Origin: Escherichia coli
GTDB lineage: Bacteria; Pseudomonadota; Gammaproteobacteria; Enterobacterales; Enterobacteriaceae
Strand: one strand, 5' to 3'
DNA: 64,000 nucleotides
Assembly (NCBI RefSeq): GCF_044324875.1
Contig: NZ_CP172185.1
The notes under the pieces were generated by a model. The model was not told where the DNA came from. It worked only from the letters and a program-made list of their open reading frames with translations, and searched no databases. Both the position numbers and the translations under genes were made by a program. The first letter of the stretch is position 1. The number at the start of each line of letters is the position of its first letter. Shown one piece after another: positions 5,134-11,193 of the stretch.

Positions 5134-6442
<1,309 letters not shown>

Positions 6443-6477
6443 GCAGCTCCTGCAATATATTGAATTTTCATGCTTTT

Positions 6478-6512
6478 GTAGGCCGGATAAGGCGTTCACG
6501 CCGCATCCGGCA
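6478..6512. repeat. REP palindromic element (second REP of a BIME-like pair)
   Basis: GTAGGCCGGATAAGGCGTTCACGCCGCATCCGGCA matches REP consensus. Confidence 0.6.
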
Positions 6513-6758
6513 TGAACAAATCGCACTTTGTCAGCAATTTGGCCCCCGTAAAATATAACCATTCAATAAAACCCGCTAAAAATTATCGATTCATCAATAA
6601 ATACATCCTTACACCAGACCTTTTTTCACCAATCGACAATCACCATTACGTTTTTTATTTTTTCACCGCCAAATCGCTTGCGCACAGTGCTGCTTTGCGG
6701 CATTTTTTTAAACAAGCAAACACAACAAGCAACAAATACCAGGTTAACGGAGAAGGTT

Positions 6759-8423
6759 ATGTGTTCAATTTTTGGCGTATTCGATATCAAAACAGACGCA
6801 GTTGAGCTGCGTAAGAAAGCACTCGAGCTGTCACGCCTGATGCGTCATCGTGGCCCGGACTGGTCCGGTATTTATGCCAGCGATAACGCCATTCTCGCCC
6901 ACGAACGTCTGTCCATTGTTGACGTTAACGCGGGGGCGCAACCTCTCTACAACCAACAAAAAACTCATGTGCTGGCAGTAAACGGTGAAATCTACAACCA
7001 CCAGGCATTGCGCGCTGAATATGGCGATCGTTACCAGTTCCAGACCGGGTCTGACTGTGAAGTGATCCTCGCGCTGTATCAGGAAAAAGGGCCGGAATTT
7101 CTCGACGACTTACAGGGCATGTTTGCCTTTGCCCTGTACGACAGCGAAAAAGATGCCTACCTGATTGGTCGCGACCATCTGGGGATCATCCCACTGTATA
7201 TGGGCTATGACGAACATGGTCAGCTGTATGTGGCCTCAGAAATGAAAGCCCTGGTGCCGGTATGCCGCACGATTAAAGAGTTCCCGGCGGGGAGCTATTT
7301 GTGGAGTCAGGACGGCGAAATCCGTTCTTATTATCATCGCGACTGGTTCGACTACGATGCGGTGAAAGATAACGTGACCGACAAAAACGAGCTGCGTCAG
7401 GCACTGGAAGATTCCGTTAAAAGCCATCTGATGTCTGATGTGCCTTACGGTGTGCTGCTATCTGGTGGCCTGGATTCCTCAATCATTTCCGCTATCACCA
7501 AGAAATACGCAGCCCGTCGCGTGGAAGATCAGGAACGCTCTGAAGCCTGGTGGCCGCAGCTGCACTCCTTTGCTGTAGGTCTGCCGGGTTCACCGGATCT
7601 GAAGGCAGCCCAGGAAGTGGCAAACCATCTGGGCACTGTGCATCATGAAATTCACTTCACTGTACAGGAAGGTCTGGACGCCATCCGCGACGTGATTTAC
7701 CACATCGAAACCTATGATGTGACCACTATTCGCGCTTCAACACCGATGTATTTAATGTCGCGTAAGATCAAGGCGATGGGCATTAAAATGGTGCTGTCCG
7801 GTGAAGGATCTGATGAAGTGTTTGGCGGTTATCTTTACTTCCACAAAGCGCCGAATGCCAAAGAACTGCATGAAGAGACGGTGCGTAAACTGCTGGCCCT
7901 GCATATGTATGACTGCGCCCGTGCCAACAAAGCGATGTCAGCCTGGGGCGTGGAAGCACGCGTTCCGTTCCTCGACAAAAAATTCCTCGACGTGGCGATG
8001 CGCATTAACCCACAGGATAAAATGTGCGGTAACGGCAAAATGGAAAAACACATCCTGCGTGAATGTTTTGAAGCGTATCTGCCTGCAAGCGTGGCCTGGC
8101 GGCAGAAAGAGCAGTTCTCCGATGGCGTCGGTTACAGTTGGATCGATACCCTGAAAGAAGTGGCGGCGCAGCAGGTTTCTGATCAACAGCTGGAAACTGC
8201 CCGCTTCCGCTTCCCGTACAACACACCGACCTCAAAAGAAGCGTATCTGTACCGGGAGATCTTTGAAGAACTCTTCCCGCTTCCGAGCGCCGCTGAGTGC
8301 GTGCCGGGCGGCCCGTCCGTCGCGTGTTCTTCCGCTAAAGCGATTGAGTGGGATGAGGCGTTCAAGAAAATGGACGATCCGTCTGGTCGTGCGGTTGGCG
8401 TTCACCAGTCGGCGTATAAGTAA
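6759..8423 (+). CDS. asnB: Asparagine synthetase B (glutamine-hydrolysing)
   Basis: ATG at 6759 after GGAGAAGG RBS; 554 aa MCSIFGVFDIKTDAVELRKKALELSRLMRHRGPDWSG...; the ORF-track start at 6678 is an in-frame upstream extension. Confidence 0.95.
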   Translation: MCSIFGVFDIKTDAVELRKKALELSRLMRHRGPDWSGIYASDNAILAHERLSIVDVNAGAQPLYNQQKTHVLAVNGEIYNHQALRAEYGDRYQFQTGSDCEVILALYQEKGPEFLDDLQGMFAFALYDSEKDAYLIGRDHLGIIPLYMGYDEHGQLYVASEMKALVPVCRTIKEFPAGSYLWSQDGEIRSYYHRDWFDYDAVKDNVTDKNELRQALEDSVKSHLMSDVPYGVLLSGGLDSSIISAITKKYAARRVEDQERSEAWWPQLHSFAVGLPGSPDLKAAQEVANHLGTVHHEIHFTVQEGLDAIRDVIYHIETYDVTTIRASTPMYLMSRKIKAMGIKMVLSGEGSDEVFGGYLYFHKAPNAKELHEETVRKLLALHMYDCARANKAMSAWGVEARVPFLDKKFLDVAMRINPQDKMCGNGKMEKHILRECFEAYLPASVAWRQKEQFSDGVGYSWIDTLKEVAAQQVSDQQLETARFRFPYNTPTSKEAYLYREIFEELFPLPSAAECVPGGPSVACSSAKAIEWDEAFKKMDDPSGRAVGVHQSAYK

Positions 8424-8464: not shown

Positions 8465-8902
8465 TTATTGAGCTGCTTGTTGATTCTGATATGCAGTAAG
8501 GAAATGTTCCGGGTTTGCCACATCACTGTTTGACAACTCATCACTGTAGGCCACCGACCAGGTCGCCTGCTCATCCGGAATATGCAGGCTGCCATTCCCC
8601 TCTTTCAGGCGTAATAACTCAAAAGATTTGCCCTTAATTACGGCGGTATAGGATTTTTCACCTTCCTGTAATGCTTTCACTTTACAGCGAAAAATATGGC
8701 CATCGATGTCATTATCAACATGCGATACCTGAATGAGGGCTTCATTAGAGGCTTTCGGCCCTATCCGCATCATCCACACCACAGCGCCTTCCTGCCCACG
8801 ATAGCCAAAAACATATTTACCGATTTCCGGTTTGACCGTATCGGCAAACGCAGATTGCATAAGTAATAACGCACCCATCAGCGCCGTCATAAAACGCAGC
8901 AT
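8465..8902 (-). CDS. Hypothetical secreted protein (145 aa, signal peptide, no family recognised)
   Basis: ORF with GAGGGA RBS 5 nt upstream of ATG; N-terminus MLRFMTALMGALLLMQSAFA-DTVK looks like a Sec signal peptide with AFA-D cleavage site; E. coli-like codon usage. Confidence 0.6.
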   Translation of the reverse strand: MLRFMTALMGALLLMQSAFADTVKPEIGKYVFGYRGQEGAVVWMMRIGPKASNEALIQVSHVDNDIDGHIFRCKVKALQEGEKSYTAVIKGKSFELLRLKEGNGSLHIPDEQATWSVAYSDELSNSDVANPEHFLTAYQNQQAAQ

Positions 8903-9165: not shown

Positions 9166-9200
9166 TTGACGCTGCAAGGCTCTATACGCATAATGCGCCC
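9166..9200 (+). promoter_or_regulatory. Sigma70 promoter of tRNA operon (TTGACG -35, 17-bp spacer, CATAAT -10, GC-rich discriminator)
   Basis: TTGACG at 9166-9171, CATAAT at 9189-9194, then GCGCCCCGC discriminator typical of stringently controlled stable-RNA promoters; about 40 bp upstream of first tRNA. Confidence 0.6.
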
Positions 9201-9235: not shown

Positions 9236-9312
9236 GGCTACGTAGCTCAGTTGGTTAGAGCACATCACTCATAATGATGGGGTCACAGGTTCGAATCCCG
9301 TCGTAGCCACCA
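9236..9312 (+). tRNA. metT: tRNA-Met (CAU, elongator)
   Basis: GGCTACGTAGCTCAGTTGGTTAGAGC...CTCATAA anticodon loop...GGTTCGAATCC...GCCACCA; cloverleaf with encoded CCA. Confidence 0.95.
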
Positions 9313-9321
9313 TCTTTTTTT

Positions 9322-9406
9322 GCGGGAGTGGCGAAATTGGTAGACGCACCAGATTTAGGTTCTGGCACCGCAAGGTGTGCGAGTTCAAGTCTCGCCTCCC
9401 GCACCA
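9322..9406 (+). tRNA. leuW: tRNA-Leu (UAG)
   Basis: GCGGGAGTGGCGAAATTGGTAGACGC...anticodon loop TTTAGGT...long variable arm...GCACCA. Confidence 0.93.
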
Positions 9407-9429
9407 TTCACCAGAAAGCGTTGTACGGA

Positions 9430-9504
9430 TGGGGTATCGCCAAGCGGTAAGGCACCGGTTTTTGATACCGGCATTCCCTGGTTCGAATCCAGGTACCCCA
9501 GCCA
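9430..9504 (+). tRNA. glnU: tRNA-Gln (UUG)
   Basis: TGGGGTATCGCCAAGCGGTAAGGCACCGGTTTTTGATACCGG...GGTTCGAATCC...CCCAGCCA; anticodon TTG. Confidence 0.93.
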
Positions 9505-9519
9505 TCGAAGAAACAATCT

Positions 9520-9596
9520 GGCTACGTAGCTCAGTTGGTTAGAGCACATCACTCATAATGATGGGGTCACAGGTTCGAATCCCGTCGTAGCCACCA
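9520..9596 (+). tRNA. metU: tRNA-Met (CAU, elongator), second copy
   Basis: Identical to 9236-9312. Confidence 0.95.
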
Positions 9597-9644
9597 AATT
9601 CTGAATGTGTCGAATGCGTTCGGCAAATTCACAAACCAATTTGT

Positions 9645-9719
9645 TGGGGTATCGCCAAGCGGTAAGGCACCGGATTCTGATTCCGGCATTCCGAGGTTCG
9701 AATCCTCGTACCCCAGCCA
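9645..9719 (+). tRNA. glnV: tRNA-Gln (CUG)
   Basis: TGGGGTATCGCCAAGCGGTAAGGCACCGGATTCTGATTCCGG...GGTTCGAATCC; anticodon CTG. Confidence 0.93.
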
Positions 9720-9723
9720 CATT

Positions 9724-9750
9724 AAAAAAGCTCGCTTCGGCGAGCTTTTT
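9724..9750 (+). terminator. Rho-independent terminator of tRNA operon
   Basis: AAAAAGCTCGC-ttcg-GCGAGCTTTTT hairpin with U tract. Confidence 0.8.
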
Positions 9751-9765
9751 GCTTTTCTGCGTATA

Positions 9766-9842
9766 TTCAATGTCGAATGCGATGTTGACTCGTCTTATCC
9801 TTCAAAGTCGGATGCGACGCTGACGCGTCTTATCCGACCTAC
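9766..9842. repeat. Two tandem degenerate REP-like units (BIME-like) between tRNA terminator and ubiF 3' end
   Basis: Unit A TGTCGAATGCGATGTTGACTCGTCTTATCC and unit B GTCGGATGCGACGCTGACGCGTCTTATCCGACCTAC share the REP core GATGCGACGCTG..CGTCTTATC. Confidence 0.5.
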
Positions 9843-9872
9843 GGTTGGCATGCATCCGGCAATGTTGTAAGG

Positions 9873-11048
9873 CTACAACCCTAACGCATATTTCAGCGCC
9901 TGACGTTTCAACATGCCAGCACGCTCCGCCGCCATCAAACCAAGATTACGCACAAAACGCAGTGGTGGCAGATTATTGCTGAATCCGGCATAAAACAGAT
10001 CCATACCGCTCTGCATAATGAAGTTATCCGCCATGCGCCGCATCTGGTAACGCTTGAGGATCGGATAACTGGCCCACGCTTCGCCATGGCTGCGAGCGTT
10101 GACCAGAACGTCAATCAGGGCATCGACATCACGATAACCAAGATTCACCCCCTGCCCCGCCAGCGGATGGATGGTATGCGCGGCATCGCCCACCAGTGCC
10201 AGTCCCGGCTGCACATACTGCAACGCATGGCGGCGCGTCAGCGGAAAAGCGCCAGCGGCAAGCGGTGTTACATACCCAAGACGTGACGGGAAATGCTTCG
10301 CGATTTCCGCCTGTAGCTGCGCCATATTCATATTCTGCAACTGGCGAATGCGTGCCGGAGAGTCATACCACACCAGCGATGCCCAGTTATCAAACAACGG
10401 CAGAAACGCACGAGGTCCATCCGGGGTAAATTGCTGCCAGGTGCTGTCGCCGGGATCGTTCTCACACTGTACGCTAATCAACATACACGACTGTGCATAC
10501 TGCCAGGCATGAACGCCAATTCCCGCCATCTGCCGCACCTGCGAATTTGCGCCGTCGGCACCAATCACCAGCTTCGCGCGGATCGTTTCACCGCCCTTCA
10601 GTTCCAGCTCCTGAAGATCATTATGGCGATGCAGCGCAATCAGCGAGCCTGGCACACGTAACGTTACTTTCGGATGCGCTTCCAGCGCCTGCCACAGCGC
10701 CTGTTGCAGGACAGTGTTTTCCACCATGTAGCCAAGCAGCGGTAGCTTAAGTTCAGCGGCGTCAAACACCACATGCGCCGTTTCCCACTCCCACGTTTCC
10801 AGTCTGCGGTAAGGATGGCAACGCATAGCCTGTACCGCGTCCCAGACGCCTAAACCTTTAAGCAATGATACCGAAGCCGCACTGATCGCCGAGATCCGCA
10901 CGTCCGGCTGGCTGTCAGCGACAAACGGTGCAGGTTGGGCATGTTCGATAACCATTACCGAAAATCCGTGCTGAGCCAGTCCCAGCGCCAGTGCGCCGCC
11001 GACCATTCCTCCGCCGACAATGGCAATTTCCGTTGGTTGATTTGTCAT
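9873..11048 (-). CDS. ubiF: Ubiquinone biosynthesis FAD-dependent monooxygenase (3-demethoxyubiquinol 3-hydroxylase)
   Basis: 391 aa MTNQPTEIAIVGGGMVGGALALGLAQHGF... with GxGxxG FAD motif; ORF-track start MTMTNQ at 11054 is 2 codons longer. Confidence 0.93.
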   Translation of the reverse strand: MTNQPTEIAIVGGGMVGGALALGLAQHGFSVMVIEHAQPAPFVADSQPDVRISAISAASVSLLKGLGVWDAVQAMRCHPYRRLETWEWETAHVVFDAAELKLPLLGYMVENTVLQQALWQALEAHPKVTLRVPGSLIALHRHNDLQELELKGGETIRAKLVIGADGANSQVRQMAGIGVHAWQYAQSCMLISVQCENDPGDSTWQQFTPDGPRAFLPLFDNWASLVWYDSPARIRQLQNMNMAQLQAEIAKHFPSRLGYVTPLAAGAFPLTRRHALQYVQPGLALVGDAAHTIHPLAGQGVNLGYRDVDALIDVLVNARSHGEAWASYPILKRYQMRRMADNFIMQSGMDLFYAGFSNNLPPLRFVRNLGLMAAERAGMLKRQALKYALGL

Positions 11049-11193
11049 GGTCAATCATCCTGTTAGCAATATGCTTTAAGTTTACAGGATTTTTACCCCC
11101 AAGGGCTGATAACGCTCATACTGGTCACAACGGCAGCAAAGCATTACACTATGCGCCCTGCATTCCTGGCTACTATTTCGCAAGAGCAAGTCG

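Follow-up and report, generated by a model that had tools for sequence, protein, structure and literature searches.

As read from its sequence, the tRNA locus at positions 9236-9719 of the window (the whole 64-kb stretch of Escherichia coli DNA analysed here) is the metT tRNA operon in contracted form, in which each tandem pair of glutamine tRNA genes is reduced to one copy. This five-gene layout is rare, yet it is already present in public records and is an already known kind of variation. On a slight balance of probability, at least one of the two losses arose in assembly, and the strain itself would then carry six or seven genes.

Anatomy of the contracted operon

ARAGORN detected exactly five tRNA genes in the whole window, all on the plus strand, and gave the same coordinates for them as a preliminary description of this DNA. 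The operon and its surroundings comprise the following features.

6678-8423, plus strand: asnB, the upstream flank, from the ORF list and the annotation of homologous records (the listed ORF starts at TTG; the annotated protein has 554 aa)
8465-8902, minus strand: 145-aa ORF between asnB and the tRNA operon, from the ORF list
9166-9194, plus strand: predicted sigma-70 promoter-like site (TTGACG, 17-nt spacer, CATAAT), followed by a G+C-rich stretch, from a consensus scan
9236-9312, plus strand: tRNA-Met(CAU), the metT equivalent, from ARAGORN; identical to K-12 metT
9322-9406, plus strand: tRNA-Leu(UAG), the leuW equivalent, with A for G at 9367 in the variable-arm stem, from ARAGORN and alignment
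9430-9504, plus strand: tRNA-Gln(UUG), single copy, from ARAGORN and alignment
9520-9596, plus strand: tRNA-Met(CAU), the metU equivalent, from ARAGORN and alignment
9645-9719, plus strand: tRNA-Gln(CUG), single copy, from ARAGORN and alignment
9725-9760, plus strand: intrinsic terminator-like hairpin (9725-9750; 11 pairs, loop of 4), then a T-rich tail, from a scan; identical to K-12
9873-11054, minus strand: ubiF, the downstream flank, convergent with the operon, from the ORF list and the annotation of homologous records

The operon is directed away from asnB and toward ubiF, and this asnB-ubiF setting is that of the metT operon. With one upstream promoter and one intrinsic terminator, the genes are predicted to form the single polycistronic unit of a metT-type operon. 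The promoter-like site scores 10 of 12 consensus matches, and the aligned region 9166-9194 has the same sequence in K-12, CH4796 and AVS0543; by homology with K-12, it probably functions as a promoter. The gene order is Met-Leu(UAG)-Gln(UUG)-Met-Gln(CUG), the two Met genes are identical to each other, and the tRNA sequences are those of K-12 except for the G-to-A change at 9367 in leuW. The canonical metT operon has seven genes, with both Gln genes doubled, whereas the window has five. Downstream of the terminator, two related motifs, gtcgaatgcgatgttgactcgtcttatcc and gtcggatgcgacgctgacgcgtcttatccgacctac, were observed in the interval 9765-9860; to the eye, they resemble REP-type intergenic repeats.

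At 9367 the window has A, where K-12 and almost every other E. coli have G. A G-U pair in the stem of the variable arm thereby becomes an A-U pair, and the minimum free energy goes from -36.1 to -36.5 kcal/mol. Only 2 of 5426 complete genomes (PSS-08-2 and War) have A at this position, together with draft genomes of the window's own clone. Because A is common to the same-clone drafts and to two unrelated strains, it is a real, recurrent and structure-preserving variant. PSS-08-2 and War are unrelated seven-gene strains that are without the 145-aa ORF, and are uninformative about the window's lineage. This ORF has a hydrophobic N-terminus and gave no match to Pfam; its region was found in 985 of the 5426 complete genomes. 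It is intact in the window and in AVS0543, whereas the annotation marks it as frameshifted in all five nearest-clade records examined (042, CH4796, 300033, GN25 and Ecol_316).

The operon regions of the window, K-12, AVS0543 and CH4796, the last from the nearest clade of complete genomes, were aligned. K-12 carries seven genes at the same asnB-ubiF position, with the Gln genes doubled, as the preliminary description stated. From the promoter to past the terminator, the window is collinear and nearly identical with K-12 except for two gaps. The first, of 109 bp (alignment columns 303-411), corresponds to one Gln(UUG) gene and the 34-nt glnU-glnW spacer; the second, of 112 bp (columns 625-736), corresponds to one Gln(CUG) gene and the 37-nt glnV-glnX spacer. 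On its 5' side the Gln(UUG) gene that remains is flanked like glnU, and on its 3' side like glnW; for the Gln(CUG) gene that remains, the corresponding flanks are those of glnV and glnX. Neither the glnU-glnW spacer, TCTTCTTCGAGTAAGCGGTTCACCGCCCGGTTAT, nor the glnV-glnX spacer, ATTTATTCAAGACGCTTACCTTGTAAGTGCACCCAGT, has a match anywhere in the window at up to 3 mismatches. The earlier statement that each Gln isoacceptor is present once is correct.

The repeats lie 109 and 112 bp apart in 042, a relative with seven genes. In the window, each Gln pair lacks exactly one unit, and the junctions fall in register within the identical direct repeats. Such precise loss is the pattern expected from either a deletion in the cell or a collapse in the assembler, and it supports the pair of alternatives, unequal recombination or assembly collapse, that had been put forward for this locus. 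If the identical 77-bp repeats of a Gln pair were put in register, one unit would drop out; this could take place in the cell, by slippage or by unequal exchange, or during assembly or polishing.

Distribution among E. coli genomes and within the clone

As had been proposed, the locus was compared across the species, in 5426 complete RefSeq genomes of E. coli, among which the five-gene layout proved rare but recurrent. The duplications were sought with a synthetic query of 171 nt that holds both junctions, each made up of the spacer flanked by the last 25 nt of one gene and the first 25 nt of the next. Both junctions were found in 5210 genomes (96.0%), only one in 188 (~3.5%), including the reference genomes E2348/69 and E24377A, and neither in 28 (0.5%). 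The single-Gln(CUG) context, represented by a query spanning one Gln(CUG) gene and both flanks, was found in one piece in 151 genomes. A 175-nt query across a single Gln(UUG) gene reached 80% coverage in 5412 genomes, with partial pieces joined through the Met repeat, and only its rows with a full-length E-value (44 rows) were usable. Since this query could not count single-copy genomes, the number without the Gln(UUG) duplicate was derived by arithmetic, which gives ~123 genomes without the Gln(CUG) duplicate only, ~65 without the Gln(UUG) duplicate only and 28 without both.

Six-gene layouts were found in E2348/69, E24377A and Ecol_316, which are without one Gln(CUG) copy, and in CH4796, which is without one Gln(UUG) copy. 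A second record of E2348/69 (LT827011) was listed with the same single-Gln(CUG) context. Because E2348/69 and E24377A, which we take to be Sanger-finished genomes, carry six genes, one-unit deletions are real in nature. At least 12 complete genomes (~0.2%) align in one piece to the window's operon, with two Met genes, one Leu gene and two Gln genes; these include AVS0543, FDAARGOS_1077, ECCTRSRTH03, TUM9757 and 2824. The five-gene layout was confirmed by ARAGORN in AVS0543 and by alignment in the other 11. The five-gene genomes found vary widely in size and in how closely they match the window, and suggest an origin in several lineages.

Two further arrangements, real or artefactual, were observed in records of the locus. 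In AVS0528 (NZ_CP124400.1; 810-948 of the locus) and six other AVS genomes, 139 nt rather than 48 separate metU from a single Gln(CUG) gene. In IPCEC42 (1032-1215 of the locus), the order is Met-Leu-Gln(UUG)-Gln(CUG), with a spacer of the glnU-glnW length and no metU.

The nearest complete genomes to the window are 28 strains including E. coli 042, at 99.6% identity over 22 kb, and their clade is presumably phylogroup D. Within it, 042, 300033 and GN25 have seven genes, CH4796 has lost one Gln(UUG) copy and Ecol_316 has lost one Gln(CUG) copy. Draft contigs of the window's own clone were found at NCBI by an exact-protein look-up with the 145-aa ORF. The draft GCA_040713135.1 shows no difference from the window in stretches of 3312 and 9039 bp (12.35 kb in all), the A at 9367 included, and has seven tRNA genes despite its identical flanks. 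Seven tRNA genes are also present in GCA_016679215.1, which has 2 differences from the window, and six, with one Gln(CUG), in GCA_050232825.1. The copy number in these independent assemblies of the clone is higher than in the window, as expected of a collapse. Because these drafts carry seven or six genes, the contraction is private to the window's record or to a tiny sublineage.

A 326-aa ORF at 5353-6333 matches NF033542, the IS110 family RNA-guided transposase (NCBIfam, 255.8 bits), and lies in an IS110-family element that occupies roughly 5200-6520 of the window. The clone's short-read drafts stop at window positions 6195, 6445 and 6521, at or inside this element, which argues that the element is multicopy in the lineage. 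The window's assembly crosses it, and its source is thus a long-read, hybrid or finished assembly, the class of assembly in which collapses of the tRNA locus occur.

Collapse in assembly and deletion in the cell

Collapse of this locus is evident in public records. The leuW gene is absent everywhere in 13 of the 5426 "complete" assemblies. The records of MC1061 (NZ_CP195014.1), which we take to be a K-12 derivative, and AVS0947 (NZ_CP124460.1) hold only Met-Gln(CUG) at the locus, and that of ST648 (NZ_CP008697.1) holds Met-Leu-Gln(CUG) and no Gln(UUG). The transcription unit is the sole source of its anticodons, and in MG1655(DE3) its deletion succeeded only when a plasmid complemented it (PMC11480407; also PMC6265465). 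Since the operon is essential and no other locus supplies tRNA-Leu(UAG) or tRNA-Gln(UUG), records that are without leuW or Gln(UUG) are misassembled; those of MC1061, AVS0947 and ST648 are almost certainly such misassemblies. Both of the processes originally proposed are documented at the locus, as one-unit losses in E2348/69 and E24377A and as collapses in the assemblies that are without leuW or Gln(UUG).

Losses of both duplicates were observed in 28 genomes as compared with 2.6 expected under independence, an excess of ~10-fold; after exclusion of the records without leuW, 15 remained against the same expectation of 2.6. Contracted layouts were also clustered by sequencing project. The AVS and GF projects accounted for 17 of the first 60 single-Gln(CUG) matches listed and for 17 of the 44 full-length single-Gln(UUG) rows, as compared with 0 of 57 genomes in a systematic sample of canonical genomes (Fisher p 4e-6 to 4e-3). 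One of the AVS genomes was announced as a hybrid assembly made with Unicycler (PMC8340865).

From these observations we infer where the units were lost. An origin in assembly is favoured because same-clone drafts with identical flanks carry more genes, because collapse is certain in some public "complete" assemblies of the locus, because double contractions exceed independence and cluster by sequencing project, and because the window's assembly is of the type that shows collapses. The probability that both losses are artefacts nevertheless falls somewhat short of even, and a mixture of one real and one artefactual loss is rather unlikely; these probabilities are rough and were drawn from base rates. 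Several findings weigh against an artefact. One-unit losses are real in E2348/69 and E24377A, and GCA_050232825.1 is already without the Gln(CUG) duplicate, so the window's sublineage may have inherited this loss. No anticodon is missing from the five-gene set, which is in principle viable, and the projects that produced FDAARGOS_1077, ECCTRSRTH03 and 2824 show no visible excess of variants.

Several of these findings also support the alternative that both losses are genuine deletions in the isolate or its immediate sublineage, which we regard as a serious prospect of rather less than even probability. Deletion between direct repeats is frequent in E. coli and is largely RecA-independent at such repeat length. 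The identical 77-bp direct repeats lie 109 and 112 bp apart; slipped misalignment or unequal sister-strand exchange between them would leave all tRNA species in production, with one copy rather than two of each Gln tRNA per transcript. The junctions are precise and in register, as this route predicts, ~3.5% of complete genomes are without one unit (E2348/69 and E24377A among them), and the seven-gene, Gln(UUG)-loss and Gln(CUG)-loss states all occur in the nearest clade, with the Gln(CUG) loss also present in the same-clone draft GCA_050232825.1. Recombination between tRNA genes of the operon has been seen to occur spontaneously on a Salmonella plasmid (PMC5400242), and E. coli strains are reported to vary by plus or minus one copy in tRNA genes (PMC4539685). 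However, two independent events would be needed, other sampled members of the clone show seven genes with no flank difference in 12 kb, and double losses in assemblies are far commoner than independence predicts and are clustered by project. Loss of at least one unit in assembly is the reading that we slightly prefer.

A third possibility, that the five-gene layout is ancestral and the K-12-type duplicates were gained later, is scarcely credible. Both duplications are carried by 96% of the 5426 genomes, the window's own clone has seven genes, and the five-gene genomes suggest several lineages; the analysis found no evidence in support of an ancestral five-gene state. Because the operon of Salmonella has the same seven genes (PMC5400242), seven is taken as the ancestral number.

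Significance and relation to known systems

A real contraction would halve the strain's usual gene dosage for both glutamine tRNAs. Because the genes are all cotranscribed, the Met:Leu:Gln(UUG):Gln(CUG) output would then change from 2:1:2:2 to 2:1:1:1. With a single Gln(CUG) gene, there would also be no spare gene to mutate into a supE-type suppressor. The retention of the duplicates in 96% of genomes despite an easy route of loss suggests weak purifying selection for Gln-tRNA dosage. It is very improbable that the double contraction is both real and selected, acting as a fast one-way copy-number switch that would halve Gln-tRNA dosage relative to Met and Leu and tune translation in natural isolates under slow-growth or nutrient-poor conditions. 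Whether deletion or assembly under-count, the five-gene contraction is biologically unremarkable. The metT locus is a sensitive indicator of assembly quality and, since several "complete" RefSeq E. coli genomes are without essential tRNA genes here, tRNA counts taken from assemblies need read support before they are read biologically.

An eLife 2023 paper on tRNA redundancy makes no mention of the genes of this operon. The closest known system is the metT operon of K-12, which shares the asnB-ubiF position and is identical to that of the window in promoter, spacers, terminator and tRNAs, apart from one leuW base and a few spacer bases; it differs in having seven genes, whereas the window has five, minus one 109-bp and one 112-bp unit. 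The six-gene alleles of E2348/69, E24377A, Ecol_316 and CH4796 show the same precise one-unit contraction at the same repeats, but in one Gln pair, whereas both pairs are contracted in the window. The public five-gene genomes (AVS0543 and 11 others) have a gene order and junctions identical to those of the window but probably belong to other lineages, with flanks 96.9-98.7% identical to the window, and several come from projects that also deposited certainly collapsed assemblies. The Salmonella plasmid pUST314 (PMC5400242) provides an experimental example of deletion by recombination between identical tRNA genes of the operon; there, the recombining genes are the metT/metU pair, the deletion removes leuW-glnU-glnW, and the event took place on a plasmid under selection.
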